Shown here piece by piece: positions 3,438-43,730 of a stretch of DNA of 44,090 nucleotides; position 1 is the stretch's first letter, and each line of letters begins with the position of its first letter. The notes beneath the pieces are model-generated. The model searched no databases. It saw only the letters and a program-made list of their open reading frames with translations, and was not told the origin of the DNA. Both the position numbers and the translations under genes were made by a program. Source of the DNA: a virus (lineage: Duplodnaviria > Heunggongvirae > Uroviricota > Caudoviricetes); IMG/VR virus record IMGVR_UViG_3300045988_048025; one strand, given 5' to 3'.

Positions 3438-3458
3438 AGCCCCGAAAGGGGCTTTCTT
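3438..3458 (+). terminator. Terminator/attenuator-like hairpin between portal and head morphogenesis genes
   Basis: agcccc-gaaa-ggggct followed by ttctt. Confidence 0.4.
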
Positions 3459-3463
3459 ATAGT

Positions 3464-5356
3464 ATGCTATTAACTTTAGCACCACAGGGTTTAACTATGA
3501 GCTTACTTACATCACTCATCAGCCATCAGATATGGCTGCAACGCACCGCATCCGGTGAGGTGAAAGACCTCGCACCGTTCATTAAGGAGATGCGGGATGA
3601 AATAAAACGGCAGGTGCTGTTATTCGGTGATGACGGGCGGAGCACTGCGCGACTGAATAAACTGTTACTCGACCTTGAAGAAGCGCTAACCGGACTTACC
3701 GGCGATTGGCAAACAAAGCTGACAGAAGACCTTAAGGAACTGGCGGCATACGAGGCTGAGTGGAACGTAAAGACACTAACCGCCAACGTTAACGCGGAAT
3801 TTGTTACGCCTACCGCCGAACAGGTGTGGGCCGCCGCCGATTTTCAGCCATTATCGTTAAACGACAAGCCTGTTGACTTCACTAAATTGATGTCTGGTTG
3901 GGGTGAAACCGAAGTCGCCCGCCTCGTAACTGGAGTTAAGATGGGCTTTGTACAAGGTCAAACCACACGGCAGATTGTTAAGAATGTCGTAGGCTCTGGT
4001 GGGCTGGCCGACATCTCAGAACGTAACGCGGCTACAGTAATCCGCACCGCGCTGTCTCATGTATCCAACGAAGCCCGTAACGAGACGTACCGCCAGAACG
4101 ACGACATCATCGAGAAATACGAGTGGGTATCAACGCTGGACAGCCGTACCAGTACGATTTGCAGAGCCAGAGACAGGATGACGTGGGAAATCGGTAAAGG
4201 GCCGATGCCTCCGGCCCATCATAATTGCTTACTTGGGGATACTGTAGTATCTACCGGTAGTCCGGTTTCTAACATTTTTAAACGGGCGTACAAAGGCACT
4301 ATAGTCTATGTCTCTACAAGGTCCGGTCGCACCTTGTCTATCACCCCAAACCACCAGGTATTGACTACCAATGGTTGGGTTGCTTCCGGCCTTCTCAATG
4401 TAGGCGACAAGCTCGTGTGCGCTAAGGACTCTGCGCTCTCTCTCAAGCATAAGGAACACAACGTTGTAGCCAAGTTCTCCGATTTGTTTAGTGCGGCTAA
4501 TGTAGCGGTCAATCCTGCGGCGGTCCGTACAAGCCCAACCACCACCGAAGACTTCCACGGCGACGGAACCGACGGCGAAGTCGAGATTGTACTTGTCAAC
4601 CGCCTTTCCTGGGATAAAGTCAAGTCCGGACTGAATAAGCAAATCATTGACAAGGAACTCCCAGTGGCTTCCCGCATTTATGACTCCCTCTCTGGCTTTG
4701 GCTCTGCGAAGCAGTTCAGCATGGTCGGCCTTTCTCCCTCGGACAGCTTCATGCGCCGCGGCGGAGAGAGCGAGGCGCTCCTCGGGAGTAGCTTTAGCCA
4801 TTCTGATAAACATAGCGTCGCTGACACCGCGAATACTAACGCCGTTCTCTCTGAGAACGCGTATGACTGGGTTACACGAAACGCCGATAATCTTTCCGAT
4901 TTCAACTGGTCCGATGCCGTCGGTATAGAGCTTGATGATGTTGTCGATTTGGTCTTTAGTGAAGCTGATTTTTGCGGGCATGTTTATAACCTCGAAAATG
5001 AACAGAACTGGTATCTCGCAAATGGAATTATAGCACATAATTGTCGCTCAACAACCGCGCCAGTAATCAGTTCTGAGTTCGACTTCCTCGATAAAGGCGC
5101 AAAACGCGCGGCTAAGGGTGCGGACGGTGGTATGCAGGTAAGTGCAGACACCACCTATTATGAGTTCCTCAAACAACAACCTGCGTGGTTTCAGGACCAG
5201 GCGCTCGGCCCTGTTCGCGGTAAGATTTTCCGTAACAGCGGTATATCACCGGAAGAGTTTCGCGTAATATCTGTAGATGGTTTCGGGAATCCGCTCACGC
5301 TTAAGCAGATGGCGGAACTCGATAAACGTGTTGCTGATTATCTGAAAGGGGATTAA
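3464..5356 (+). CDS. Head morphogenesis protein (phage Mu F-like / SPP1 gp7-like) interrupted in frame by an intein-like element
   Basis: EWVSTLDSRTSTICRARD...PPAHHN then, after the insert, CRSTTAPV, which resembles the conserved H-x-N-C-R region of Mu F-like proteins; located after the portal. Alternative start ATG 3497. Confidence 0.75.
   Translation: MLLTLAPQGLTMSLLTSLISHQIWLQRTASGEVKDLAPFIKEMRDEIKRQVLLFGDDGRSTARLNKLLLDLEEALTGLTGDWQTKLTEDLKELAAYEAEWNVKTLTANVNAEFVTPTAEQVWAAADFQPLSLNDKPVDFTKLMSGWGETEVARLVTGVKMGFVQGQTTRQIVKNVVGSGGLADISERNAATVIRTALSHVSNEARNETYRQNDDIIEKYEWVSTLDSRTSTICRARDRMTWEIGKGPMPPAHHNCLLGDTVVSTGSPVSNIFKRAYKGTIVYVSTRSGRTLSITPNHQVLTTNGWVASGLLNVGDKLVCAKDSALSLKHKEHNVVAKFSDLFSAANVAVNPAAVRTSPTTTEDFHGDGTDGEVEIVLVNRLSWDKVKSGLNKQIIDKELPVASRIYDSLSGFGSAKQFSMVGLSPSDSFMRRGGESEALLGSSFSHSDKHSVADTANTNAVLSENAYDWVTRNADNLSDFNWSDAVGIELDDVVDLVFSEADFCGHVYNLENEQNWYLANGIIAHNCRSTTAPVISSEFDFLDKGAKRAAKGADGGMQVSADTTYYEFLKQQPAWFQDQALGPVRGKIFRNSGISPEEFRVISVDGFGNPLTLKQMAELDKRVADYLKGD
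4226..5041 (+). mobile_element. Intein-like in-frame insertion (272 codons)
   Basis: Begins with Cys (CLLGDTVVSTG, block A-like), contains ITPNHQVLTTNGW (block B-like TxxH), ends VYNLENEQNWYLANGIIAHN (block F/G-like, terminal HN) followed by +1 Cys; excision would restore HHN-CRST. Confidence 0.75.
4229..4981 (-). CDS. Antisense ORF nested in the intein: putative HTH plus PD-(D/E)xK (Vsr/DUF559-like) nuclease, candidate homing endonuclease
   Basis: ATG at 4981 with GAGG 8 nt upstream; HTH-like IDNIIKLYTDGIGPVEIGKIIGVSCNPVIRVLRENG; nuclease-like core YNLDFAVGSVAVEVFGGGW...DRRRIDRYISRTKQIGELGYNVVFL; protein-like composition while the sense strand here is Ser-rich linker. Track ORF is 4229..5038. 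Confidence 0.4.
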   Translation of the reverse strand: MPAKISFTKDQIDNIIKLYTDGIGPVEIGKIIGVSCNPVIRVLRENGVSIRGVSDAMFIRMAKATPEERLALSAAAHEAVRGRKADHAELLRRAKAREGVINAGSHWEFLVNDLLIQSGLDFIPGKAVDKYNLDFAVGSVAVEVFGGGWACTDRRRIDRYISRTKQIGELGYNVVFLMLERERRVLSAHELVAYIEKAGSNPTIGSQYLVVWGDRQGATGPCRDIDYSAFVRPFKNVRNRTTGRYYSIPK

Positions 5357-5844: not shown

Positions 5845-6096
5845 TCAATACCCAGTCTCTTGGGTTAAGTTAATCTCTTTATTCCAGACGTTTTGGTTAT
5901 ACTTTTCACGAATCTGGCGCATACTTCTACCGAGCGCGGCGGATAGAGACATATCCCCGTCTTCTTGCGCGTCCAGTTGCATCTGCTGAAGCTCAATATA
6001 CGCCGAAATATCGCCGCGTAATTCAGCCTGTTCATACTCTTTTTTAAGAAAGGAACCAAGGTCCTGTACACGATGTTTTGCTGGTTTCGTAATCAT
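5845..6096 (-). CDS. Hypothetical protein (83 aa)
   Basis: ORF on the - strand with its own upstream promoter motif; no recognisable domain. Confidence 0.5.
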   Translation of the reverse strand: MITKPAKHRVQDLGSFLKKEYEQAELRGDISAYIELQQMQLDAQEDGDMSLSAALGRSMRQIREKYNQNVWNKEINLTQETGY

Positions 6097-6125
6097 TTCT
6101 TCTCGCCTCTTGTTGGTGTGAGTGA

Positions 6126-6154
6126 ATAGTACCCTATTATATTGGTGTCTGCAA
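6126..6154 (-). promoter_or_regulatory. Sigma70-like promoter for 5845..6096 (-35 TTGCAG, 17-bp spacer, -10 TACTAT) overlapping a 16-bp operator-like motif
   Basis: Read on the - strand: TTGCAG-acaccaatataataggg-TACTAT, then leader tcactcACACCAACAA. Confidence 0.4.
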
Positions 6155-6220
6155 ACTATTTGTTTACGTATTCCAGTTATTCTTCGTAATTGTAAATGTT
6201 AGAATAAACTATTCGAATAG

Positions 6221-6249
6221 TTGACTTTTCACTAAAAATATGATAAGCT
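6221..6249 (+). promoter_or_regulatory. Sigma70-like promoter (-35 TTGACT, 17-bp spacer, extended -10 TGaTAAGCT)
   Basis: TTGACT 6221..6226, TG 6241..6242, TAAGCT 6244..6249; near-identical copy at 37507..37535. Confidence 0.5.
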
Positions 6250-6860: not shown

Positions 6861-6969
6861 CGACGCAGACGAGGATTTGGCTATTGACGTTCAGAACGCC
6901 GAATGCGCACGGCAACTGCGACTGAAAGTGTTCATGTTGCAGGATTACGTGAGGAATATTCTGGAATAG
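6706..6969 (+). CDS. o-spanin (Rz1-like lipoprotein), putative, overlapping the i-spanin gene
   Basis: GTG start with RBS ggaggtga; signal peptide ending LLTMSAC (lipobox-like, Cys), then Pro-rich PAPSQTPIPYPDTTMMQPP; starts inside 6474..6860 and extends past it. Confidence 0.45.
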   Translation: MKSLSTLKRLAAACALLTMSACSSSPAPSQTPIPYPDTTMMQPPCKLAPPSSDADEDLAIDVQNAECARQLRLKVFMLQDYVRNILE

Positions 6970-12168: not shown

Positions 12169-13337
12169 ATATGGCTACAACTCCTTTTAAGGGCGCGAAT
12201 ACCGCGCAATTCTATGTGGCGGAAGTGACCCCTGGCGTAACACCGACTAACCCGGTCTGGTCGCCGTTGCGTAACACTGGCGGTGTTCCTGCGGTAACCC
12301 GCGATGCGCTGACTTCCAACGAACTCGACGGCAGCAGAGAAACCACATCCATCCGCACCGGTAACAAACAGGTTAGCGGGGAGTACGCCATCGAACTTAG
12401 CTCACGTAGCCAGGATGATTTCCTTGCGGGTGCTATGACTTCTACGTGGCAGGACGGGGTAGAGATTACGGGTGCTGAAATTACGGTCGCTCCAGCAGGT
12501 AAAACATTCACCCGCGCTGCCGGTAGCTTCATTACTGACGGTGTAGAGGTTGGCGACCTGATTGCATTCACCGACTTAACCGGCGACAACGCAAAACCGT
12601 TTATCGTGACCGCGGTTTCTGCTCTTGTAGTTACGGGTGCGGGTATCCAGCACACGCTGACAGCAGAGACTGTAACCACCGACGCTAAAACAGGCGATAA
12701 ATTGGAAACCGGTAACGCATGTAAGACGTTCTCCATCCTGACATGGTTCAAAGGACAGTGCAGGAACCATGACGCGTACATGCTGACCAAAGGCGTGGAA
12801 ATCTCCGGTTTCACCATTGAACAGGCCGTAAACGCGATGGTGACAGGCAGCTTCCCGTTCATCGGTCTGAGTCAGGAAATTCTTTCTGCACTGCCAGCAG
12901 GTTCTGATTTCTCTCAGGTGACGTTTACCGATGAGCCGTTCTCATCCGTAGATGTGTCTGTGTTCGACGGTTCTACGCCGTTGCGTTGCGATACTCTGAC
13001 CATCACCAACGACAACGGTGCTTCCGCGCAGTTCGAACTCGGCAACAGTAGTGTTGCGTTCGTGGAACGTGGCCGCGCAGCTAACACATTCTCCATCTCT
13101 GGTAAGCTGTACGACATGGCGATGATTCAGAAGTTTATCAACGAACAGCAGGTAGAGATTAACTCTATTCTGGCGGGGGTAAACGGGGCTATGTCTTTCA
13201 GCCTGAAACGCGCAGAGCTTACGGCGGTTACGCCAGAAATATCTGGCCCGGAATCAATTACGCAAAGCATAGAAGGACAGTCCACAGGCAATCAATATCA
13301 ATCTTCTATTGTAATACAGCGTATTAGCTACGCGTAA
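12165..13337 (+). CDS. Major tail (tube) protein (putative)
   Basis: 390-aa ORF upstream of the chaperone and tape measure genes; followed by a strong terminator. Confidence 0.55.
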   Translation: MNMATTPFKGANTAQFYVAEVTPGVTPTNPVWSPLRNTGGVPAVTRDALTSNELDGSRETTSIRTGNKQVSGEYAIELSSRSQDDFLAGAMTSTWQDGVEITGAEITVAPAGKTFTRAAGSFITDGVEVGDLIAFTDLTGDNAKPFIVTAVSALVVTGAGIQHTLTAETVTTDAKTGDKLETGNACKTFSILTWFKGQCRNHDAYMLTKGVEISGFTIEQAVNAMVTGSFPFIGLSQEILSALPAGSDFSQVTFTDEPFSSVDVSVFDGSTPLRCDTLTITNDNGASAQFELGNSSVAFVERGRAANTFSISGKLYDMAMIQKFINEQQVEINSILAGVNGAMSFSLKRAELTAVTPEISGPESITQSIEGQSTGNQYQSSIVIQRISYA

Positions 13338-14124: not shown

Positions 14125-14314
14125 TGTTAACTCTCTTAAATCGGGCTATGCCTGACTCGTTAATGTTGCCTATTTCAAAGAAGCTGCGATATTTAGGCGA
14201 ATACATTCTTACGTCGCCGTTCTCTAGGGTGACCCCTTCATATACCGCACCTACTTCGAATCCATTTTTCTCCGCGTACGGACTCACATCGGTACATTCA
14301 TACATATCTTTCAT
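14114..14314 (-). CDS. Hypothetical protein
   Basis: ORF in the inverted island; overlaps neighbours at start and stop. Confidence 0.4.
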   Translation of the reverse strand: MKDMYECTDVSPYAEKNGFEVGAVYEGVTLENGDVRMYSPKYRSFFEIGNINESGIARFKRVNSDK

Positions 14315-15441
14315 CCCAGCATCTCCGGTGAAATAGTTAAACGTGCGACCTCGCCATATTCGGCGCTATAAGTAATTACATTTGCACTACGGCCCGACAT
14401 CCATCCGCCGCGCGAGGCGTAGGCGTCTTTAGCCGCTAAGGTGCGGTGTTGCTCAACAATCATGTTACGGCTTTCTACAATCTTCTGGTGGTGCAGATGG
14501 CCTACGTGGGCGTAGCTGTAAACACTCTCGCCGAACGCTTTACGGAACTTGGCAATCATTACCGGTTCGATAGCGTCGAATCGCGCCTTATGCCCGTGGT
14601 GAAAGAACAGCGTAGTTTTGCCGTGTTGGACCATCTTGTAAACATCCGGCGACGTATCGACGAACACACGCGGCTCATTGTCGTACAGCGTACTAAACAT
14701 CTCAGCTAACCAAATCATTCCGCTTTCGTCGTGGTTCCCTTGCACGATAAGCAAGCGAACAGATTTATGCTTAACCAGCGCCATGTCAACAACACGGCGT
14801 ACCATACGAATCATGTATCGGACCAGTTTCTGATAACGAGTGTCCGCATCAAGAACATGACCACTCGCTGGCGTAACCGCATCCAGACTATCGAAGTGCG
14901 CGAAGTCACCCAGCAGGTTAATAACCCCAGTTCCTGCATCTGGTGCTTTCTGAAACGCCGCATCGAACCATCGGGAGAACAGGTCTTCCGCAATCTTCAT
15001 ATCCCAGTCGTCGCCGCTCTCGTCAGCCCAGGCCAGCATACCAAGATGGAAATCAGATACCGTGTACAGATTGAGTAGTTTATCATCGCGTTTGGCTCGA
15101 GTCGCTTTAACCGGCGCAACTGGCGTAATCTCCGACTTCATTCCTTCGATCACGGCTTTCATTAACTCGACCTGACGTTCGGCGTCGGTGTCTGTCTTAA
15201 CCCATTGCAACTTAGTGTTGCCGAACTCGTCCACCAGTGACGACGTTCCTTTAATTTTGTAGCCGTCCGGGACAAGATGGCTAACGTCACGACCGTGACC
15301 TACGCCTTTCTTCGCCAGCTTCGCTTTACGGATACGAATAACTCGGTCTGAGATGCCGTATTTACGGGATATGTCGATAATCTTTGTTCCGGCGTTCAAT
15401 TCTTCCTGTAACTGTTCGTCGGTTATTTTCTTCCGGGCCAT
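14311..15441 (-). CDS. N-terminal HTH domain fused to calcineurin-like metallophosphoesterase
   Basis: HTH-like ISRKYGISDRVIRIRKAKL; phosphoesterase motifs SDFHLG, LLGDFAHFD, GNHDE, HHGH, GHLHH. Confidence 0.6.
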   Translation of the reverse strand: MARKKITDEQLQEELNAGTKIIDISRKYGISDRVIRIRKAKLAKKGVGHGRDVSHLVPDGYKIKGTSSLVDEFGNTKLQWVKTDTDAERQVELMKAVIEGMKSEITPVAPVKATRAKRDDKLLNLYTVSDFHLGMLAWADESGDDWDMKIAEDLFSRWFDAAFQKAPDAGTGVINLLGDFAHFDSLDAVTPASGHVLDADTRYQKLVRYMIRMVRRVVDMALVKHKSVRLLIVQGNHDESGMIWLAEMFSTLYDNEPRVFVDTSPDVYKMVQHGKTTLFFHHGHKARFDAIEPVMIAKFRKAFGESVYSYAHVGHLHHQKIVESRNMIVEQHRTLAAKDAYASRGGWMSGRSANVITYSAEYGEVARLTISPEMLG

Positions 15442-15479: not shown

Positions 15480-15671
15480 TCACTTCTCTTTGACATTCGA
15501 GTTGCAAGCCCAGATTAAAATAAATACCCACGGCAGCAGAACCCAGCCGAGAAACAGATTAGCCATGAATATCGCCAGTTTCGCTTTATGTCCGCGCATA
15601 TGGGCCACTAAAAACGGGATAAAATAAACTAAAACGATAATGATTAAGAAGAACATAGTAATACCTGTCAT
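15480..15671 (-). CDS. Small membrane protein (two predicted TM helices)
   Basis: ATG at 15671 with RBS aggagc; MTGITMFFLIIIVLVYFIPFLVAH...LFLGWVLLPWVFILIWA. Track ORF extends to 15809. Confidence 0.45.
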   Translation of the reverse strand: MTGITMFFLIIIVLVYFIPFLVAHMRGHKAKLAIFMANLFLGWVLLPWVFILIWACNSNVKEK

Positions 15672-15712
15672 GGTGTAGCTCCTGTTTGAGTTAACATTGT
15701 TGGTGTAAGTGA

Positions 15713-15741
15713 ATAGTATCCTATTATGTTGGGGTGCGCAA
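15713..15741 (-). promoter_or_regulatory. Sigma70-like promoter for the inverted island (-35 TTGCGC, 17 bp, -10 TACTAT) with operator-like motif
   Basis: Same architecture as 6126..6154 and the same leader ACACCAACAA. Confidence 0.4.
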
Positions 15742-20895: not shown

Positions 20896-21257
20896 ATATT
20901 AATTCTTATACAGGGTTGCCGTACGACTTTCGCCGTCGTAATTGCTGGCACCATGTCCGTAACGTTCGTGCGGATGTAGGCCTCTTTACGCCTGAGTTTA
21001 ACGTCGCTTCGCCAACACAGATTAACGACGCCTTCGAAGAAGGCCATAAAGATACTAAAGGCCTTGTACGCGTAGAAACTCCGCAAAACTTCGATGCCGT
21101 GCTGATGGCAACACGGCACAGAAACCGTGTAATCTGGCACGCCGGAGTATACTATGACGGTATGGTTAGTCATTGCGAGCTGGCGAGTCGCCAGGTACGG
21201 TTAGACCGTCTGGAAGACTTGCGCGAAACTTATGCGGAGATAGAATTTTGGCGCTGA
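20892..21257 (+). CDS. Tail assembly protein, NlpC/P60-like (lambda K-like), putative
   Basis: Conserved Cys and His (NCWHHV ... HAGVYYDGMVSH) suggest a Cys-His peptidase fold; tail tip context. Confidence 0.4.
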   Translation: MNINSYTGLPYDFRRRNCWHHVRNVRADVGLFTPEFNVASPTQINDAFEEGHKDTKGLVRVETPQNFDAVLMATRHRNRVIWHAGVYYDGMVSHCELASRQVRLDRLEDLRETYAEIEFWR

Positions 21258-23803
21258 CATTACATTACACCCGTAACGAAGACGGTACTTTCGACCGCGA
21301 ACGGCACAACGTACCGCCGATGGAATACGTCGTCGCTAACATCCCCGACGGGGTGCCTGTACGTATTTACCGTGGCGAGATCGGCGAGGACACGGAAGTA
21401 ACTGAAGATTTCGAAGCGCTGAAAGAAGACGATGTTTTCCATATTATCGAAGGCGCTGGTGGCGGTGGCGGTTTTCTGGGTAAACTCCTGGACCCTTTGG
21501 GTGTGCTTAAATTTGTTACCAAGTTGATTTCTCCGTCGCAGAAAACGCCTAAAACGAGTTTAGCGAACCGGCAGGCTGAGTCCCCCAACAACAGCCTGAC
21601 GGACCGAAACAATAAACCCCGTCCATATGAACGGTCGTATGATATTTGCGGCAGAGTCCAGACTATCCCTAATGACCTCATGACTACCTATAAAATATTC
21701 GATGAATCTGGTCGCATTATTGAATACGGATACTACGATGCCGGTCGTGGGTATCTGGACATCAAGGCCGAAGATATTACCGACGGCGATACTAAGGTAC
21801 AGGAGATTACGGGGACCTCTGTCGCGGTGTACGCGCCGTTTACATCCCCCAACAATACAAATACCCCGCAGCTTCTGGTGGGGGAACCTATCAATCAGAA
21901 TCTTTATATAACTATCGCGTCTAATGAAGTAGATGGAGCCGTTCTTAAAGCCCAGAACGATATTCGGGTCAACCCAAGCGACACGGGCCGCGTGAGATAT
22001 GACTCTGCTACAAAAATTGGATACCTGTATGACGGCACGGGGGATTCTGGCTTCGCGGAAATATTATCTGTTGGTGACACCGCGTCGTTCAATAACTTTG
22101 ACGTTCCGGACGTAACAAATACCAACGGCAACTTTCGTGTTCTTTATGTCGATAACTTCGAGCTGCGGGTCGACACCGGCGGCGCGTCTAATTGGGCTGC
22201 TTTAGGCTCAACCACCTATTCACTTTCCCAGAGAAGTGACACGTGGGTAGGCCCCGTGGATACGTATAAAAGAACATTAACCGACTGGACCACCTTAAAC
22301 CGCCTGGAAGTTGAACGCGTAGTAGCCAACATCGCTGCCGCTAACGGTATGTATAAAGACAACGGCAGTAAATTGCGTACGTCGGTAACTATTGAACTCC
22401 AATACCAACTACTCGATGAAACCGGTGCCCCATACGGGAGTATCTATTCAAAACAGGCCGTTATATCTGGTCGGTCCGCCGACTACACCGGAGTTACTAT
22501 TTACGCCGACTTGCCCGTTCGGTCGAAAGTTAGGGTACGCGCCCGCCGTGTAACTAATCTGGACCTCGATTTCGAGGGTACCGTGGTAGATGAGGTTTCG
22601 TACATCAACCTTTATGGGCAGGTTCGCGACACTACGCCACATTATGGCAACCGTACTACCGTACACTCCGCGCGTAAGCAAACGCCGCGTGCCGCGGAGA
22701 TTAAGCAGCCACAACTACGTATGGTTGCCACGGAGATGGTGTACAAATACCGCGGCAACGGCGTATTCGACACGGTTATGACGCCGAATACTCAGGCAAT
22801 TCAATCCTTAATCCGTCTTGCCCGCGACCCGGTAGTCGGTAATCTGAACCTAACAACATCCAATATGGACAAGTTGTTAGCGACTCAGACCGAGATAGAA
22901 AACTATTTCGGTAACGTGGAGGCGGGTCAATTCTGCTACACTTTTGACGACTATAAAATGACCATGCAGGATATCATCAGCACAATAGCCGATGCTATTT
23001 TCTGCACTCCATATCGTAAAGGGCAAGACATATTACTGGATTTCGAGCGCCCGCGTATGGGGCCGGAAATGGTATTCACACATCGAAGTAAGACAACAGC
23101 TTCGGAAAAGTGGACGCGCACATTCAACGACGCTCAGGTATACGATAGTCTTAAGTTCTCCTACATCGACCCAGATACTAACGTAAAAGAGACCATCAGC
23201 ATTCCCGCCGAGGGCGGTGTTAACACAGAAACGTATGACTCTAAAGGTATACGTAATTATCGTCAGGCGTACTGGGCGGCGTACCGTCGGTACCAGAAGA
23301 ACCTGTTGAAGAAGGTGACGGTATCATTCACGGCGACAGAAGAAGGGGTTTTTGTGCTTCCAGGACGGGCAATAAGCGTAGTTAAAGGCTCGCGAGTAGC
23401 ACCTCAAGATGGTTATGTCGTTGCCGTTAATGGGCTTACCCTTACTCTTTCTCAGCCGGTTACGTTTACTCCGGGGGATGACCACTCACTGATTCTTAAG
23501 AAGAGAGACGGCGGAGTTCAAAGTGTTGCTGTTGTGCCTGGAAGCCACGACCGTGAAGTGGTTATGCTCTCTGCGCCTCAAGAGGCGATATACACAGGGA
23601 ATAGCGCACTAAAAACTGAGTTTTCATTCGGTAACGAAGCAAGGCATAATGCTCAGATGATTCTTGTTTCTACAGTTGACCCCGGAGACGACAGAACGGT
23701 TAAGATTACCGGGATTAACTATGAAGCAGATTTCTATAAATACGACGGCGTCGCGCCATACGGCAGCGGTTTCTCCGACGGATTCAGCGATGGTTTTAAT
23801 TAA
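21248..23803 (+). CDS. Tail tip / central tail fibre protein (host specificity, J-like), putative
   Basis: Large ORF after the K-like gene; TTG 21248 with GGAG 8 nt upstream (track ORF begins 21173, overlapping the upstream gene). Confidence 0.45.
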   Translation: MALTLHYTRNEDGTFDRERHNVPPMEYVVANIPDGVPVRIYRGEIGEDTEVTEDFEALKEDDVFHIIEGAGGGGGFLGKLLDPLGVLKFVTKLISPSQKTPKTSLANRQAESPNNSLTDRNNKPRPYERSYDICGRVQTIPNDLMTTYKIFDESGRIIEYGYYDAGRGYLDIKAEDITDGDTKVQEITGTSVAVYAPFTSPNNTNTPQLLVGEPINQNLYITIASNEVDGAVLKAQNDIRVNPSDTGRVRYDSATKIGYLYDGTGDSGFAEILSVGDTASFNNFDVPDVTNTNGNFRVLYVDNFELRVDTGGASNWAALGSTTYSLSQRSDTWVGPVDTYKRTLTDWTTLNRLEVERVVANIAAANGMYKDNGSKLRTSVTIELQYQLLDETGAPYGSIYSKQAVISGRSADYTGVTIYADLPVRSKVRVRARRVTNLDLDFEGTVVDEVSYINLYGQVRDTTPHYGNRTTVHSARKQTPRAAEIKQPQLRMVATEMVYKYRGNGVFDTVMTPNTQAIQSLIRLARDPVVGNLNLTTSNMDKLLATQTEIENYFGNVEAGQFCYTFDDYKMTMQDIISTIADAIFCTPYRKGQDILLDFERPRMGPEMVFTHRSKTTASEKWTRTFNDAQVYDSLKFSYIDPDTNVKETISIPAEGGVNTETYDSKGIRNYRQAYWAAYRRYQKNLLKKVTVSFTATEEGVFVLPGRAISVVKGSRVAPQDGYVVAVNGLTLTLSQPVTFTPGDDHSLILKKRDGGVQSVAVVPGSHDREVVMLSAPQEAIYTGNSALKTEFSFGNEARHNAQMILVSTVDPGDDRTVKITGINYEADFYKYDGVAPYGSGFSDGFSDGFN

Positions 23804-26158: not shown

Positions 26159-27585
26159 TTCTTACCTCGTCTCTTCATGTAATTAAGCAATTCTTCCTGT
26201 ACAGATTTCTTCTCGTCGGTGCGCGCGGCAACAACCTCGTCCAGCGTGTCTTTAGCAACGATGTGATAGAGGAATACCGGGCGCTCGTGGCCTGCCTGCT
26301 TCTGGCGTACCGGGCCTATGCGCTCGACAACCTGCAAATAGTGCTCGAGGTTCCAGCCTTGCGAAATAAACGCCAGATGATGTCCGCCGTCCTGTAAATT
26401 CAAACCATGACCAGCGGACGCTGGGTGGACGCATAAGATTTCGATTTCGCCACGGTTCCACGCCTCCATCTGTTTATTACCCTTAGCACCTTTTGCAAAC
26501 GCCTGCGCCTGCGGGAATCGCTTAAGGATGCGCTCCAGTTCGTGCTTGAACTGATAGGCTACCAGTAGCGGCGCACCCTGTAACTCCTCAACAATGGACT
26601 CCAGCGCATCCAGTTTCGTGTCGTGCACTTTCTCCCAGTCTTTCGTTGCTTCGCCGTCCGGGCCCGATACATACACGGCACCAGAGGCAATCTGCAAACA
26701 CTTCGACGTCTTCGCCGCAGCGTTAGCCGCTTCAACTTCTCCGCTCTCCAGTTCCGCGAATAACTTCTCCTCCATATCTATGTACGCCTGACGCGCTTTC
26801 TTAGGCAGGTCGATTTCAACCGGCACGATAATTGGTGCTTCACATCCAAACCACTCAGCAGGGTCGATGGTAAGGCTGATGTCTTTCATCTTCTGATGAA
26901 TCTCATTATCTGCACCCGGGCGCGCGTGATATTCACGCGCCATCGCCGACTTACCTTTCTGTACCGAGTTAAACCAGCGGTCTGTGAATGCTGTGTACGA
27001 TGAGCCGAGTCGCTCGCCAGCGTCGATAAACCAGTTCTGACCCCACAAGTCTTTGAGTCCGTTTGGCGACGGTGTGCCAGTCAGGTTGATGAAACGTTTA
27101 ACCTTTCCAAATGCCACTTTACTAAGCGCCTTTGCTCGCTTGCTTCCGCCAGAACGGCTACGGAATGATTTAAGCTTCGTGCTTTCATCGGCAACGATAA
27201 CCGTAAAAGGCCAGTCGTCTTTGCCGTAGTAGTCGATAAGCCACTCGATAACTTCGTAGTTAGTGCACACCACGTTAGCATCAGACTCCAGCGCCGCGAT
27301 GCGGCGCTTCTCTGAACCCGTAGCGTCGACAACACGCAGACAAGGGAAGTTCCATTTCTCTTGTTCAGCAGGCCACGTGCCTGACGCAACTCGCAATGGG
27401 GCGAGGATTAACACGCGGTCCTCTTCTGTAAGTTGCCCGTTGCGAAACAGGCGGTTTAGCACCCACATAGTGGAGGAGGTTTTACCCCCTCCCATGCCGC
27501 ACCAGATATTACAGCGCGGGTGTTGCAGCATGAACGAAGTCATGAGCTTCTGGTACTCTCGACGGATAAATTTAGACATACTCAA
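26155..27585 (-). CDS. SF2 ATP-dependent helicase (SNF2/DEAD-like)
   Basis: Walker A GMGGGKT, Walker B VADEST, C-terminal helicase-type motif region (GHGLNLQ). Start may be ATG 27579 rather than TTG 27585. Confidence 0.7.
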   Translation of the reverse strand: MSMSKFIRREYQKLMTSFMLQHPRCNIWCGMGGGKTSSTMWVLNRLFRNGQLTEEDRVLILAPLRVASGTWPAEQEKWNFPCLRVVDATGSEKRRIAALESDANVVCTNYEVIEWLIDYYGKDDWPFTVIVADESTKLKSFRSRSGGSKRAKALSKVAFGKVKRFINLTGTPSPNGLKDLWGQNWFIDAGERLGSSYTAFTDRWFNSVQKGKSAMAREYHARPGADNEIHQKMKDISLTIDPAEWFGCEAPIIVPVEIDLPKKARQAYIDMEEKLFAELESGEVEAANAAAKTSKCLQIASGAVYVSGPDGEATKDWEKVHDTKLDALESIVEELQGAPLLVAYQFKHELERILKRFPQAQAFAKGAKGNKQMEAWNRGEIEILCVHPASAGHGLNLQDGGHHLAFISQGWNLEHYLQVVERIGPVRQKQAGHERPVFLYHIVAKDTLDEVVAARTDEKKSVQEELLNYMKRRGKK

Positions 27586-27776
27586 TCCTTAACGTAGAGT
27601 ACCAGCTCTTTACGTCCGAACGCCGTAACGTTACCAGTTACATCTTCGATGACCAGTTTACCGTTTGACTCTACGAACACCGTATCAACGGCAACAGGCT
27701 GGCGAGTCTTAACGTTGAAAATCATATCGCCCGGTACGATGTCACGTGCTGGTTTGCGGTCATATTCGTGTTTCAT
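27582..27776 (-). CDS. Hypothetical protein (64 aa)
   Basis: ORF with upstream promoter motif at 27810..27838. Confidence 0.4.
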   Translation of the reverse strand: MKHEYDRKPARDIVPGDMIFNVKTRQPVAVDTVFVESNGKLVIEDVTGNVTAFGRKELVLYVKD

Positions 27777-27806: not shown

Positions 27807-28091
27807 CTAACTATAATAGTTCGCTATTAGGTCGTCAACCTGTTTGAACGACCCAACGACAAAAACATTTGCGCCGCGTTTTCGGAATCTCTCGTGTTCA
27901 CGTATCTGGTGCGGGTCTGGCTTCGTATTTTCGTCTTTCTTAATCTCGACGAACCAGACGATGCCACCGGGGAGAATTACCAGGAGGTCCATGGCGGCTC
28001 GCCGGCCTTCAAATGCCATCTTGCGAACGAGGCCGCCAATGGCCTCGAATCGGTCTTTTGCGTATTTCTGAATCTTGCCTTCCGGAGTCAT
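27807..28091 (-). CDS. VRR-NUC domain nuclease (putative)
   Basis: MDLLVILPGGIVWFVEIKKDENTKPDPHQIREHERFRKRGANVFVV fits the VRR-NUC (PD-(D/E)xK) pattern. Confidence 0.55.
   Translation of the reverse strand: MTPEGKIQKYAKDRFEAIGGLVRKMAFEGRRAAMDLLVILPGGIVWFVEIKKDENTKPDPHQIREHERFRKRGANVFVVGSFKQVDDLIANYYS
27810..27838 (-). promoter_or_regulatory. Sigma70-like promoter (-35 TTGACG, 17 bp, -10 TATAGT) with operator-like motif in the spacer
   Basis: Read on the - strand: TTGACG-acctaatagcgaactat-TATAGT, then leader tagtcctACACCAACAA. Confidence 0.45.
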
Positions 28092-30961: not shown

Positions 30962-31588
30962 TTAGCGGCGGCGACGTTCGCGGCGCGGTGCTTCATCTTC
31001 TTCGTTGTCCTCAAGGTCATCGACGCTTGCAGCGACTTTAGAACCACCGAACGCTTTACCTTCGCCGACGTATTTAATCGCCAGCAGGTTAACCCCGAGA
31101 ACTTTATATTTCTGGCTGAACCAGATTTCAACGCTTACGTTAGCTACGCAGCCGCTGTAAACCTGTTCGCCTTCAATCTGTTCGCCGTCTACATTGAAGT
31201 CCTGCTCTACCTGAGTCTCGCCTTTTTTAGAGGTTACAATCAGCGGTTGTTTCTGTGCCTTCGCTTTGAAGTAGAAGCCTTCCGGGAAGTCTTCAAACGG
31301 ATTGTCACGCTCGGCAATGTCTTTAATCGCGCATTTATCCATGTGCTTTCCTTCGCCGTAGTTGGACTTCATCCACTTCTCTGCGGCGGCTGCGCCTAAC
31401 GCTTCTTCAACCACAGCGTAAACGGTGTCGTAGAGCGCGTCGATTTGTGCGTGGTCAGACGGCAGGATGATAGTCGCGCTGTACTGGCCTTTAGTGATTG
31501 AGCCATCATCGTTTTCACGGTCTTTTTCGCGTTCGAATACGTTAACCCATGCAGTGTTTACTTTACGCAGATTTAATTTCAGTCCCAC
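30962..31588 (-). CDS. Single-stranded DNA-binding protein-like, acidic C-terminal tail (putative)
   Basis: 208 aa with C-terminus DDLEDNEEDEAPRRERRRR; sits next to the exonuclease gene; GTG start. Confidence 0.4.
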   Translation of the reverse strand: MGLKLNLRKVNTAWVNVFEREKDRENDDGSITKGQYSATIILPSDHAQIDALYDTVYAVVEEALGAAAAEKWMKSNYGEGKHMDKCAIKDIAERDNPFEDFPEGFYFKAKAQKQPLIVTSKKGETQVEQDFNVDGEQIEGEQVYSGCVANVSVEIWFSQKYKVLGVNLLAIKYVGEGKAFGGSKVAASVDDLEDNEEDEAPRRERRRR

Positions 31589-31653: not shown

Positions 31654-31682
31654 ACTATAATAGCTAACTATTCAGGTGTCAA
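31654..31682 (-). promoter_or_regulatory. Consensus-like sigma70 promoter (-35 TTGACA, 17 bp, -10 TATAGT) with operator-like motif in the spacer
   Basis: Read on the - strand: TTGACA-cctgaatagttagctat-TATAGT; paralogous to 34251..34279. Confidence 0.5.
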
Positions 31683-33697: not shown

Positions 33698-34219
33698 TTA
33701 TTCTTCTTCGAAATACTTGTTCTTGATTGCCGTCAGGCGCTCCAGGTACTCGGCGAGGTCTTCGTCTTTAATCGCGGCAATCTTCATCTTCTTACCGGTG
33801 AACTCTTCCAGCAGTTCATCGGAATCATCACACGCGGCATCGCTCGGACCTTCGTTAATCGCATCGTCGATAGCCTGAATCTGGTCGCGCAGAGACTGGT
33901 AATCTACTTCTTCCTTCTCTTCTTCCGGCTCTGGCGTTGGTTCCTCTACTTTAGCTTTACGCGGCTTACGTTTCGGCTTCTCTTCTTCCGCCGGTTTAGT
34001 GTCAACGAGGTCTTCACCTTCGACCGGGATTTCTTTCGCCTTCTCGACTTCTTCAAGTGCTTTAGCCAGTTCTTTTTTAACTGTCTCTACCCCCGTTACC
34101 GCTACGTCAACAGTCAATTCACCTATAGATTTATTGGTCGGTTGTTTCGCACTATTCGCAGCAATCAGTTCATGTGCAACTACGAAACGTTCCAGTAATA
34201 CTAAGAATTTCTCTAACAT
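33698..34219 (-). CDS. Acidic hypothetical early protein
   Basis: E/K/D-rich 173-aa ORF directly downstream of the promoter at 34251..34279. Confidence 0.45.
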   Translation of the reverse strand: MLEKFLVLLERFVVAHELIAANSAKQPTNKSIGELTVDVAVTGVETVKKELAKALEEVEKAKEIPVEGEDLVDTKPAEEEKPKRKPRKAKVEEPTPEPEEEKEEVDYQSLRDQIQAIDDAINEGPSDAACDDSDELLEEFTGKKMKIAAIKDEDLAEYLERLTAIKNKYFEEE

Positions 34220-34250: not shown

Positions 34251-34279
34251 ACTATAATAGTGAACTATTCACATGTCAA
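34251..34279 (-). promoter_or_regulatory. Consensus-like sigma70 promoter (-35 TTGACA, 17 bp, -10 TATAGT) with operator-like motif
   Basis: Read on the - strand: TTGACA-tgtgaatagttcactat-TATAGT; a second similar element lies at 34295..34323. Confidence 0.45.
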
Positions 34280-34343
34280 TGGGCTTTTCTAAAATAATTA
34301 ATATGGTACTATTCACATATCAACTAACTAAGGAGTAATTGTC

Positions 34344-34559
34344 ATGCAACCATCTGAACTAGGCATCCGTGTAGAAAAACGCCGTAAAGAACTCGGCATC
34401 TCCCAGCGCCGTCTGGCGGTGCTGACCGGGGTTTCCCAGAGCGCAATTAACCAGCTGGCACTTGGGGTAACCCAGGACGTCCGCCCGGCAACGCTGTTTA
34501 AACTGGCGGAAGTGCTGGAGGTAGACGCCAAGTGGCTGGCGTTCGGTGAAGGGGCTTAA
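34344..34559 (+). CDS. XRE-family HTH transcriptional regulator (Cro/CI-like)
   Basis: LGISQRRLAVLTGVSQSAINQL is a classic HTH_3-type motif; RBS aaggag; divergent from 33698..34219. Confidence 0.65.
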   Translation: MQPSELGIRVEKRRKELGISQRRLAVLTGVSQSAINQLALGVTQDVRPATLFKLAEVLEVDAKWLAFGEGA

Positions 34560-34575
34560 CGCCCCTTTCTTTTTA
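34550..34575 (+). terminator. Rho-independent terminator after the XRE regulator gene
   Basis: aggggc-ttaac-gcccct followed by TTTCTTTTT. Confidence 0.6.
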
Positions 34576-37230: not shown

Positions 37231-37401
37231 TTATTTAACGTTCTCTTTAACCCACGATTCAACTTTATTACGGTCAAATGTACCCGGCATTCTGCGACCC
37301 ATTACTTTAACGCTGCAATCAGGAAACTTTCCACTCTTAATCCAGTTATTAATTGTCTGGCGGGTGACGCCGATTAATTCTGCAACTTCATTGATAGTCA
37401 T
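37231..37401 (-). CDS. Small HTH DNA-binding protein (AlpA/excisionase-like fold, putative regulator)
   Basis: ATG 37401 with RBS aggaga; MTINEVAELIGVTRQTINNWIKSGKFP. Track ORF extends to 37491. Confidence 0.5.
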   Translation of the reverse strand: MTINEVAELIGVTRQTINNWIKSGKFPDCSVKVMGRRMPGTFDRNKVESWVKENVK

Positions 37402-37506
37402 TTCACGCTCTCCTGTGTAACATGTATCGAAGTATAAGGCGGTAACTTTGTAAAAGCAACCAAAACCGAACACAAAGTTACTAAGATACAAAAGATGCTA
37501 CTGGTA

Positions 37507-37535
37507 TTGACTTTTACTTAAAAATATGCTAAGCT
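37507..37535 (+). promoter_or_regulatory. Sigma70-like promoter (-35 TTGACT, 17 bp, extended -10 TGcTAAGCT), paralogue of 6221..6249
   Basis: Near-identical to the promoter at 6221..6249. Confidence 0.5.
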
Positions 37536-37650
37536 TCACTGAGCTTGTGAGATATCGCAAGCGACCGCGGAGCGGCAGGGAACGCAACGCGTGCCATTAG
37601 GCACTTGAGTGTAGTTCCGCTGGCGCTTTCGGAAGGGCCAAAGTCTATTG
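37536..37650 (+). ncRNA. Candidate conserved structured RNA element / leader, copy B
   Basis: Largely identical to 6250..6362, with a compensatory change in one hairpin (gtgcc-atta-ggcac versus ggac-gtaa-gtcc). Confidence 0.35.
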
Positions 37651-37736
37651 TTAATCCCGCCTAAATACCCAAGCCACTGATAATTAAAAGTTTCTATAGT
37701 TGCCGTAAGCAAGGTAGAGAGTACTTCACTCCGCTG

Positions 37737-37756
37737 GGGTGGGCTAACGCCCACCC
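37737..37756 (+). terminator. GC-rich hairpin downstream of RNA element copy B (weak terminator-like)
   Basis: gggtgggc-taac-gcccaccc; T-run only 15 nt further on. Confidence 0.3.
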
Positions 37757-37815
37757 ACTGCGTTGCGTACTCTTTTAAGAAACGAAAGAATCACAACGGC
37801 ATCGTAACTATTCTC

Positions 37816-37844
37816 TTGCACACCCCAATATAATAGGACACTAT
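37816..37844 (+). promoter_or_regulatory. Sigma70-like promoter (-35 TTGCAC, 17 bp, -10 CACTAT) with operator-like motif
   Basis: TTGCAC-accccaatataatagga-CACTAT, 35 nt upstream of the first + strand early gene. Confidence 0.45.
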
Positions 37845-37878
37845 TCACTTATCGGAACGAGACAGAGGAGTTGGGGTT

Positions 37879-38148
37879 ATGTTTAAGAAGGGTCAGTTGG
37901 TGAAAACGAAACGCGGTGGGCAGTACGTAATAGTGTTGCAGGACGAGAACGAGTATGACGAGGATAATATAGTCGACGTATGGGGCCTGGTAAGAAAGAA
38001 ACCCGGGTTCGCCTTACGCGATAATCTGGAATTAATTGGCAACAATTTTAAATTCAAAGGGGTATTCGATGGCGGACTGAAAGCCTCATTCACAACGGCA
38101 TCGAATCATGATGCTCGTGCCGACGACTCTGAGGGAGGTTGCCGTTAA
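37879..38148 (+). CDS. Hypothetical early protein
   Basis: ORF with RBS gaggag. Confidence 0.4.
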   Translation: MFKKGQLVKTKRGGQYVIVLQDENEYDEDNIVDVWGLVRKKPGFALRDNLELIGNNFKFKGVFDGGLKASFTTASNHDARADDSEGGCR

Positions 38149-38864: not shown

Positions 38865-38893
38865 TTGCACACTGGGGGAGAATAGGATACCAT
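38865..38893 (+). promoter_or_regulatory. Sigma70-like promoter (-35 TTGCAC, 17 bp, -10 TACCAT) with variant operator-like motif
   Basis: TTGCAC-actgggggagaatagga-TACCAT. Confidence 0.35.
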
Positions 38894-39063
38894 TCATTTA
38901 CACAAACGAGAGGAGAGGCAGAATATGGTTACTTTGATGATTATGGAGTTCGAAAACAGCGCTGCAACTTACCGCGAGATGACTATGGCGCAGGCGTACC
39001 ACCTGGCTAAACACGGCAACTTCTACAAGGCTCAAATCATTAATGAGTTTGGGGTAATTGACT

Positions 39064-41936: not shown

Positions 41937-41958
41937 ATCTATTTTCTGCAATGACTAG

Positions 41959-41987
41959 TTGACTATTACCCTCGACCCTATTATATT
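41959..41987 (+). promoter_or_regulatory. Sigma70-like promoter (-35 TTGACT, 17 bp, -10 TATATT)
   Basis: Near-consensus hexamers 35 nt upstream of the next gene cluster. Confidence 0.5.
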
Positions 41988-43326: not shown

Positions 43327-43497
43327 ATGTTCAGTGACATTAACGCAGCAATCGAGGAAGCAATCTGGCGTCGCTACAACGGCGAACAGCAACGGCACTT
43401 CTGCCTGGTGCAACACGGAAACATGATTGCCGTAGTGCAGGACCGCGATAACAAATATCCGAATGCGATGTGGACAACGAGGAATTTTTTAGGATGA
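43327..43497 (+). CDS. Small hypothetical protein (56 aa)
   Basis: ATG 43327; stop overlaps the next start. Confidence 0.3.
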   Translation: MFSDINAAIEEAIWRRYNGEQQRHFCLVQHGNMIAVVQDRDNKYPNAMWTTRNFLG

Positions 43498-43730
43498 TTA
43501 CCAGCATTCCGAACCTGATTAAAGAATTTGGCACGATGGCGGAGACATGCCGACAAACTGGACTCAATGAAATGACGATTGCGAAGTACAGCAAAGACGT
43601 CGATTGCGAGCGCCATGTAATTTATAACAATCGTCTCATGACGCACGTTAAGACAAGCCCGGTGTTATTCACGCGCCGTGGTATCACTAAAACTGAGCTA
43701 CGAATTGCTAAAGAGGAGAGCGGGGAATGA
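43494..43730 (+). CDS. Putative DNA-binding protein (HTH-like)
   Basis: ATG 43494 with RBS agga; AETCRQTGLNEMTIAKYSKD resembles an HTH. Confidence 0.35.
   Translation: MITSIPNLIKEFGTMAETCRQTGLNEMTIAKYSKDVDCERHVIYNNRLMTHVKTSPVLFTRRGITKTELRIAKEESGE

Follow-up and report, generated by a model that had tools for sequence, protein, structure and literature searches.

We analysed a 44,090-nucleotide stretch of DNA from a virus of the Caudoviricetes (IMG/VR record IMGVR_UViG_3300045988_048025; hereafter the window) and found that a short palindrome, AATAG-N4-CTATT, recurs in it non-randomly, lies at promoter-like sequences and shows the conservation footprint of a dimeric DNA-binding protein. Two copies bracket the predicted promoter of a gene, at 34344, whose XRE-family product is homologous to 434 Cro. 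The motif is, to judge from these features, very probably a protein-binding operator and not a promoter consensus or a chance repeat. With less assurance, we favour the 434 Cro-like protein as the factor that would bind the dyad, acting as a repressor and as its own regulator. The source of the window appears from its DNA to be a virulent Kagunavirus-like E. coli phage: between 33000 and 38000 it shares about 90% identity with Escherichia phages Ivi, K1G, fPoEco01 and further members of Kagunavirus (subfamily Guernseyvirinae), and the Salmonella Jerseyviruses are more distant relatives of the same region by DNA comparison.

In the mechanism that we propose, a 14-bp operator, (T)AATAG-N4-CTATT(A), would be built into the core of at least eight, and probably 11, sigma-70 promoters of the host type. 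From the sequence we infer activity of these promoters, occupancy of the dyad by a dimer of a phage-encoded helix-turn-helix (HTH) protein, most likely the 71-amino-acid 434 Cro homologue, and repression through the blocking of RNA polymerase (RNAP). The targets would be three replication operons read leftward, the block of small genes that runs rightward from 37879, and two leftward inserts in the structural region (gene 5845-6096 and a superinfection-immunity/exonuclease unit). The XRE gene, having a strong site (O1) and a weaker site (O2) around its promoter, would be autoregulated. The role expected of such a protein is Cro-like, namely to lower or set the level of non-structural transcription during lytic growth.

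The dyad is over-represented in the window

The initial annotation had described the motif as ATAG separated by five or six bases from CTATTCAC, with a core inverted repeat AATAG...CTATT, at eight places. All eight sites are present where it put them, subject to four corrections. The literal N5 pattern has no match in the window; the true gap is N4, and ATAG-N4-CTATTCAC with at most two mismatches gives 12 matches against 2.75 expected. At 6122 and 15709, the TATAATAG...CTATTCAC reading lies on the minus strand. The site at 27816 is also 16 bp long (27816-27831), and it ends in TAGG rather than TCAC. The TCAC tail is common to the TTGCAC-17-TACTAT class of promoters described below and to O1 and O2; the other two sites of the TTGACA class end in TCAG and TAGG. 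In the Jerseyviruses the tail is replaced by TA(A/T), which makes for a better palindrome, TAATAG-N4-CTATTA. The conserved unit is the palindrome AATAG-N4-CTATT.

Six exact copies of this palindrome (AATAGNNNNCTATT) occur in the window, all of them outside likely genes; dinucleotide shuffles gave 0.03. When all dyads composed of a 5-mer, a gap and its reverse complement were enumerated without bias, the AATAG-N4 dyad ranked first, ahead of terminator hairpins (6 copies, 0.037 expected, p ~3e-12), and it also ranked first in the Jerseyvirus SETP7 and in a divergent contig, L038. Single 8-mers were unconvincing after multiple testing, TATAATAG ranking 10th and CTATTCAC 37th in the whole genome. 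We then scanned the window with a weight matrix trained solely on related contigs, the window being left out. The eight listed sites scored 16.7-31.6 bits, and the matrix added matches at 41951-41970 (14.3 bits), 3455-3474 (14.3) and 6213-6232 (9.6). At a threshold of at least 10 bits there were 11 matches, compared with 0.62 in Markov simulations. The sites at 6122 and 15709 count as independent confirmations because they lie outside the training loci of the matrix. A match of 11 bits at 12195-12214 coincides with no predicted promoter and was left off the list of sites, and a copy of GATAGAAAACTATT at 22895, inside coding sequence, was treated as chance.

The initial annotation implied that the repeat was new, but it is already in print: the same seven sites, at orthologous positions, have been tabulated as promoters found by PHIRE in two related phages. 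For VB_EcoS-Golestan (Sci Rep 2020, Table S4), the seven "conserved promoter sequences" include TAATAGCGAACTATTCACAT and TAATATGGTACTATTCACAT, which precede the XRE gene, and TTATAGTATGCTATTAACTT, a 20-mer identical to the orphan site of the window at 3455. For fBC-Eco01 (Arch Virol 2023, Table S2; PMC9825357), seven "phage RNAP promoters" are given with the consensus tgAATAGTa-ccTATTat-T, and the 20-mers of PP2 and PP3 are identical to the window sites 6122 and 15709, respectively. In both papers the dyad symmetry, the two orientations, the overlap with sigma-70 hexamers and the adjacent Cro homologue go unmentioned, and an operator reading would correct both annotations.

The label given to the fBC-Eco01 sites, an interpretation of PHIRE output (PMC9825357), would make them promoters of a phage-encoded RNAP, which we regard as next to impossible. 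The ten largest open reading frames (ORFs) of the window, which include those for a tape measure protein, an AAA helicase-primase, a family A DNA polymerase, a SNF2 helicase, a PD-(D/E)XK exonuclease and a Mu-F-like head protein, as well as three without any Pfam match, contain no match to an RNAP Pfam family. None is annotated in four complete relatives either, including SETP7 with its 67 genes. Moreover, the motif is palindromic and occurs in both orientations relative to downstream genes, whereas such promoters would be asymmetric and fixed both in orientation and in their distance from the genes transcribed.

The dyad occupies several positions within predicted promoters

All promoters referred to here were predicted from sequence. 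That the motif lies within promoter elements, as the initial annotation stated, holds for each of its eight sites, all of which overlap sigma-70-like promoters. The three best sigma-70-like matches between 25 and 44 kb, all on the minus strand, have the dyad in their spacer. The first of these, TTGACA(34279-34274)-17-TATAGT(34256-34251), would drive leftward the operon that starts with gene 33698-34219; its spacer holds O1, the perfect dyad AATAGTGAACTATT (34256..34269, extended 34253-34272; 29.5 bits), at -25..-12. The second, TTGACA(31682-31677)-17-TATAGT(31659-31654), contains AATAGCTAACTATT (31659..31672; 31.6 bits) and lies upstream of an Enc34-type single-stranded DNA-binding protein gene (30962-31588) and the DNA polymerase gene. 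In the third, TTGACG(27838-27833)-17-TATAGT(27815-27810), upstream of gene 27582-27776 and the SNF2 helicase gene, the spacer contains AATAGTTCGCTATT (27815..27828; 26.5 bits).

In a second class, TTGCAC/G-17-(T/C)AC(T/C)AT, the -10 hexamer is the right half-site of the dyad. Two members point rightward. The promoter TTGCAC(37816-37821)-17-CACTAT(37839-37844) carries AATAGGACACTATT (37832..37845; 28.4 bits) across spacer and -10 (-19..-6) and would serve gene 37879-38148 and those that follow. Another, TTGCAC(38865-38870)-17-TACCAT(38888-38893), precedes a small ORF starting at 38925 and has at its -10 the degenerate operator AATAGGATACCATT (38881..38894; 16.7 bits); here the copy in the window has decayed (ACCATT), whereas most relatives have the canonical AATAGgctaCTATT. 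Two further members, both outside the training set, point leftward and have the dyad at their -10. The promoter TTGCAG(6154-6149)-17-TACTAT(6131-6126), with AATAGTACCCTATT (6125..6138; 29.6 bits), would transcribe gene 5845-6096. The other, TTGCGC(15741-15736)-17-TACTAT(15718-15713), with AATAGTATCCTATT (15712..15725; 26.1 bits), would transcribe a superinfection-immunity gene (15480-15671) and an exonuclease gene (14311-15441). A promoter-like plus-strand sequence at 15691-15719, TTAACA-17-TAGTAT (9/12), overlaps the dyad of this last promoter; the two possibly face each other over a common operator, immediately 5' of the tail-chaperone genes.

The remaining listed site, O2, is AATATGGTACTATT (34300..34313, extended 34297-34316; 20.0 bits), with one mismatch in its left half. 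It covers the extended -10, TGgTACTAT (34304-34312), of the predicted XRE promoter. A second candidate XRE promoter was noticed at 34268-34295 on the plus strand, TTCACA-16-TAAAAT (10/12); its -35 overlaps O1, and transcription from it would start at O2.

The three sites added by the matrix are weaker, each having one mismatch. Two are centred on the -35 of rightward promoters: ACTAGTTGACTATT (41954..41967; 14.3 bits) on that of TTGACT(41959-41964)-17-TATATT(41982-41987), its SETP7 orthologue being ATAATAGTTGACTAGTAAC, and AATAGTTGACTTTT (6216..6229; 9.6 bits) on that of TTGACT(6221-6226)-17-TAAGCT(6244-6249). Adjoining the latter site and the -35 of the promoter at 6221 is a perfect 16-bp palindrome, AACTATTCGAATAGTT (6206-6221), in which the same half-sites are everted (CTATT-CG-AATAG). 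The third, TATAGTATGCTATT (3458..3471; 14.3 bits), is an orphan directly 3' of the portal-gene terminator, where we saw no convincing promoter. In fBC-Eco01 a full site in reverse orientation, at 3917-3936, possibly occupies the corresponding place, and the orphan may be a relic of a lost leftward insert.

Taken together, the dyad core lies at -19..-6 in the TTGCAC class, at -25..-12 in the TTGACA class and at -40..-27 in the TTGACT promoters at 6221 and 41959; the SETP7 immunity-gene promoter, with the dyad at about -22..-9, adds a further register. Its asymmetric flanks (TAT...CAC) run along transcription in the TTGCAC class and are opposed to it in the TTGACA class. Site by site, the motif follows the direction of transcription at 6122, 15709, 34301, 37833 and 38882, and opposes it at 27816, 31660 and 34257. 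Because all of these registers fall inside the core promoter, including the regulator's own predicted promoter if XRE is the binder, an occupied site should repress. We also considered a MerR-type activator site, which needs an over-long spacer of 19-20 bp and a regulator with a coiled-coil dimerisation helix, and rejected it, every motif promoter having a spacer of 17 bp and the MerR-like HTH_17 protein described below having only 56 amino acids.

The 5' leaders of both promoter classes share a conserved block (ACACCAACAAGAGG, ACCAAACGAGAGGAG, CGGAACGAGACAGAGGAG), for example at 6121-6100(-), 15708-15690(-), 34250-34225(-), 37849-37875(+) and 38898-38920(+). This block is kept in relatives even where the downstream gene has been replaced, which suggests that promoter, operator and leader form a mobile cassette.

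Half-sites are fixed while the centre varies

To distinguish an operator from a promoter consensus, we gathered 36 Kagunavirus-like contigs by means of the XRE protein and aligned the orthologues of six sites (28-37 sequences per site). Averaged over the six, non-majority bases made up 0.4% of the half-sites, 8.9% of the central N4 and 6.8% of the flanks. The half-sites of O1 were invariant in 37 loci, with tgaa, cgaa, ctaa, caaa, cgag or ctag at the centre; the centre of the 27816 site was likewise variable (ttcg, ctcg, tccg, tctg, tgtg and others). Each promoter class has a half-site outside both hexamers (at -25..-21 for TTGACA, at -19..-15 for TTGCAC) that is nevertheless fixed, being about 17 times less variable than the flanks. 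This includes the spacers of the TTGACA promoters, where RNAP reads little sequence. In the promoter 41959-41987, which has only a partial dyad, at its -35, the spacer drifts across relatives.

Two 5-bp blocks 9 bp apart, with a tolerant centre, in both orientations and in several core-promoter registers, are the footprint of a dimeric DNA-binding protein. The element has the two-fold symmetry, the length of about 14 bp, the conserved outer bases and the tolerant centre of a dimer's operator. The initial annotation had argued for a binding site over a promoter consensus from the two orientations; that argument is now well supported by three to four registers, both orientations, fixed half-sites and a variable centre.

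The same data bear on the idea that there is no dedicated regulator and that two duplicated families of promoter-plus-leader cassettes have been conserved through promoter function and common descent. Within one class the likeness of sites extends from the -35 through the 5' leader, their half-sites look like -10 hexamers (TATAAT, TACTAT, TATAGT), entire intergenic regions are highly conserved among Kagunaviruses, and two papers treat the repeat as a promoter. On the other hand, common descent and promoter function do not readily account for a half-site outside the hexamers that is far more constant than its flanks next to a freely varying centre, for at least three registers in both orientations, for the drifting spacer of a dyad-free promoter, or for a dyad that is the most over-represented palindrome in two genera. 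We consider this explanation improbable.

A 434 Cro homologue is the favoured binder

The XRE/HTH_3 gene (34344..34559, plus strand), which is followed by a terminator-like hairpin at 34548-34568, encodes a 71-amino-acid protein that matches Pfam HTH_3 (E 3.6e-13). Its best sequence match in the PDB is 434 Cro (E 3e-7, residues 6-68). A single-sequence AlphaFold (AF2) model has five helices with a predicted local distance difference test score (pLDDT) of 83, and its top Foldseek matches are 2cro and 3cro, the latter a 434 Cro/OR1 complex (template modelling score 0.80-0.87, 39-41% identity). The protein thus has the size, about 70 residues, the single HTH domain and the five-helix fold of the Cro/cI family. 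O1 and O2 bracket its promoter and are 44-45 bp apart in all 36 Kagunavirus loci counted; in SETP7 the distance is 55 bp. This puts the two sites on roughly, though not strictly, the same helical face and is a weak argument. XRE is also the only one of three HTH candidates that is present in all three Guernseyvirinae genera examined.

We next compared the genera. SETP7 (Jerseyvirus) has the same AATAG core, with 52% identity in XRE, 77% in a small HTH_17 protein and 62% in a NinH-like protein. Three complete Cornellvirus genomes retain XRE (42-44% identity) and the NinH-like protein (72%), and a tblastn search of the three for HTH_17 gave no match better than E ~2. TAATAG-N4-CTATTA with at most one mismatch occurs seven times in the window, seven times in SETP7 and 0/0/0 times in the three Cornellvirus genomes. 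In the Cornellviruses, the orthologous promoter spacers nonetheless contain 16-mers with this geometry, namely TAATACTAARCTAATC in the place of O1, TATTAGTGTCGTAATA and TAATACTCAGCTAATA. Across seven genomes these show little or no variation, the adjacent bases of spacer and -35 being variable. A relaxed dyad, TAWTAS-N4-STAWTA, has 7-9 copies in each of five genomes against about one expected. Among ten small Cornellvirus ORFs, Pfam detected no other HTH protein. The simplest reading of these sequences is that XRE would be the binder across the whole subfamily, with a shifted specificity.

The initial annotation called XRE the obvious candidate. Its homology to 434 Cro, the flanking sites and its presence in all three genera support it as the candidate. 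The HTH protein encoded at 37231..37401 (minus strand, 56 amino acids), which the annotation named as an alternative, remains a real rival. This HTH_17/excisionase-like protein belongs to an excisionase/MerR-like group, its PDB matches are only marginal, and its MerR matches are weak, below or near threshold. According to this rival, the operator is real and is bound by the early HTH_17 protein, which would repress or time the motif promoters, while XRE does something else. HTH_17 is 77% identical in SETP7 and 96% in contig L038, both of which have the same AATAG dyad, and it is missing from the three Cornellvirus genomes with no strict dyads. Its own putative promoter, TTGCTT(37459-37454)-17-TATACT(37436-37431), has no dyad, and its apparent orthologue in phage vB_Eco_K1B4 is expressed early. 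Small HTH_17, Xis and BldC-type proteins are known mainly for binding head-to-tail direct repeats. A perfect 14-bp dyad with 9-bp half-site spacing suits a Cro-type dimer rather than such a protein, which here lacks a dimerisation segment. Furthermore, no site adjoins the HTH_17 gene whereas two flank XRE, the Cornellviruses keep invariant dyad-like 16-mers in the same promoter spacers without HTH_17, and the phyletic match between HTH_17 and the motif amounts to effectively one evolutionary event. Binding by HTH_17 is therefore possible but unlikely, and XRE is favoured. The other alternative put forward, an HTH protein at 43494..43730, corresponds to the NinH-like protein 43470-43730, whose resemblance falls below the Pfam cut-off; it is an unlikely binder because it is 72% conserved in the Cornellviruses, where the strict motif is absent.

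The dyad core is common to phages of Escherichia and Salmonella, as it would be if a transcription factor of these hosts bound it and coupled the phage promoters to host physiology, and nothing speaks for this directly. To our knowledge, no enterobacterial factor has an AATAG-N4-CTATT site, and the boxes of CRP, Fur and ArgR, as generally described, differ from the dyad in spacing or sequence. The Salmonella Cornellviruses use another half-site despite sharing a host with the Jerseyviruses, and a matching Cro homologue encoded by the phage adjoins two sites. A host factor is accordingly very improbable.

The sole RNA-seq time course of a Kagunavirus, that of vB_Eco_K1B4, is coarse, apparently unsynchronised and extends to 120 min; 42 of its 57 genes are classed as 'middle', and DNA polymerase and immunity as 'late'. 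Judged by their size and position, K1B4_004 (216 nt, plus strand) is orthologous to XRE and classed as 'middle', and K1B4_008 (183 nt) is orthologous to HTH_17 and one of four 'early' genes. All that we conclude from this course is early production of HTH_17 and co-expression of XRE with its presumed targets; it does not discriminate between the models.

Several points weigh against an operator bound by XRE. The 'middle' class of XRE and the 'late' class of immunity and DNA polymerase, both of which have motif promoters, clash with a simple early shut-off. The strict motif and HTH_17 share a phyletic pattern, both being found in Kagunavirus and Jerseyvirus and not in Cornellvirus, which speaks for the rival no less than for XRE. 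The XRE recognition helix and the motif do not covary cleanly: the helices are SQSAINQ in Kagunavirus and SQSLITH in Jerseyvirus, which share AATAG, and TQSAISH in Cornellvirus, which has a different motif, so that the Jerseyvirus and Cornellvirus helices are similar and their motifs different. The eight sites fall into two paralogous-looking promoter-plus-leader cassettes, so that the number of independent events is below eight. A -10-like sequence (TACTAT, TATAGT/TATAAT) coincides with half of the dyad and explains part of its conservation. Finally, data on binding, footprinting or transcription starts were not found for any Guernseyvirinae phage in a literature search. As for more distant XRE homologues (38-39% identity), no AATAG dyad was seen in the two contigs that encode them, L039 and L041, as would be expected if their specificities differ.

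A broader joint reading goes beyond XRE as repressor and autoregulator, and we hold it to be rather unlikely as a whole. An orphan 434 Cro-type protein would be the master timer of the entire non-structural programme in a strictly virulent subfamily, through a single dyad placed in different registers in nearly every strong promoter. At the two leftward inserts the dyad would lie between face-to-face promoters (for instance 15741-15713 and 15691-15719), and a protein bound there would silence the leftward accessory unit and at once leave rightward late transcription unobstructed. Co-evolution of regulator and half-site between genera would have given AATAG in Kagunavirus and Jerseyvirus and WTAS in Cornellvirus.

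Comparison with known regulators

The closest likeness is to phage 434. Its operators, on which Harrison, Ptashne, Koudelka and co-workers worked, are reportedly 14 bp long and ACAAG-N4-CTTGT-like, with conserved outer bases and a variable centre. The two proteins are both 71 amino acids long and align over their full length, 434 Cro being the best match of XRE in sequence and fold. The operators agree in a length of 14 bp, conserved outer 5 bp and a variable central 4 bp, and in both phages several sites overlap promoters around the regulator's own gene. The half-site differs, AATAG here and ACAAG in 434. There are also two sites at the regulator's own gene, not three, and six to nine others across 38 kb. 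In addition, the virulent phage studied here would have no CI partner, integrase or immunity region, going by the annotated relatives: a peptidase-domain repressor or integrase is absent from the annotations of Ivi, K1G and SETP7, no lysogeny genes are reported in the published genome papers of relatives, and the divergent gene beside XRE (33698-34219) has no Pfam domain. A lambdoid immunity region with a cI-cro switch, which comprises an integrase and a divergent CI-type repressor with a C-terminal dimerisation/peptidase domain, was rejected on these grounds.

Like the Cro proteins of lambda and P22, XRE would be a small early or middle repressor that turns down non-structural promoters, its own included, from internal sites. 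Lambdoid Cro acts at two operator clusters (OL and OR), whereas here one site lies in almost every recognisable strong promoter, also at those of inserts within the structural block. The controller (C) proteins of restriction-modification systems, C.AhdI and C.BclI, which are among the fold matches of XRE, are likewise small XRE-fold dimers, with palindromic C-boxes at their own promoter that serve autoregulation; they control one operon, first as activator and then as repressor, through paired boxes upstream of the -35, in contrast to core-promoter sites throughout a genome. The stoperators of mycobacteriophage L5 and Cluster A are many copies of one repressor site across a phage genome, and the dispersal of many copies is shared. 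However, stoperators are asymmetric 13-mers in one orientation that lie mostly within transcribed regions and block elongation. Sites of this type were rejected here, the dyad being symmetric, in promoters and in both orientations.

Dimeric HTH repressors that occlude promoters are textbook biology, and no new kind of biology is proposed. What the operator reading would define is a concrete regulon of 8-11 promoters with two candidate regulators, and a candidate orthogonal repressor/operator pair for synthetic biology. For therapy and biocontrol, phages of the genera Kagunavirus and Jerseyvirus are isolated widely, and they have been proposed as a small chassis for phage engineering.

Genome layout and other features

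The gene order of the window agrees with that of annotated relatives. Structural genes run rightward from 102 to 25810, and three replication blocks run leftward from 34219 down to about 25839. The XRE gene (34344-34559) stands alone in the rightward direction and is followed by a leftward block from 37401 down to 34573, with the helicase-primase gene and the small HTH_17 gene. From 37879, small genes, lysis genes and packaging genes run rightward. No RNA family was found in the window with Rfam.

Between the HTH_17 gene and the rightward promoter there are about 390 bp (37492-37878) without a convincing gene. An ORF at 37536-37754 starts with GTG and is oddly composed, and phage Ivi has no annotation for the region. 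The region contains a hairpin, GGGTGGGC-TAAC-GCCCACCC, at about 37741-37760, and may serve as an origin or in regulation.

The Mu-F-like head morphogenesis gene (3464-5356) encodes 630 amino acids, compared with 347 in SETP7, and its product contains an intein splicing domain (Pfam Intein_splicing, residues ~264-526). A similar intein in a capsid-morphogenesis protein is reported for phage Snoke.

The commonest over-represented 8-mer of the window is ACGGCAAC/GTTGCCGT, with 21 copies against about 2-3 expected. Copies are scattered genome-wide on both strands, for example at 6909, 7726, 11564, 16800, 18764, 22125, 27688, 28836 and 32031 on the plus strand and at 20915, 23420 and 26075 on the minus strand. 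The 13 copies of the plus strand are spread over all three positions modulo 3. Because the copies are dispersed, on both strands and in all three frames, the codon bias of one gene does not explain the excess.

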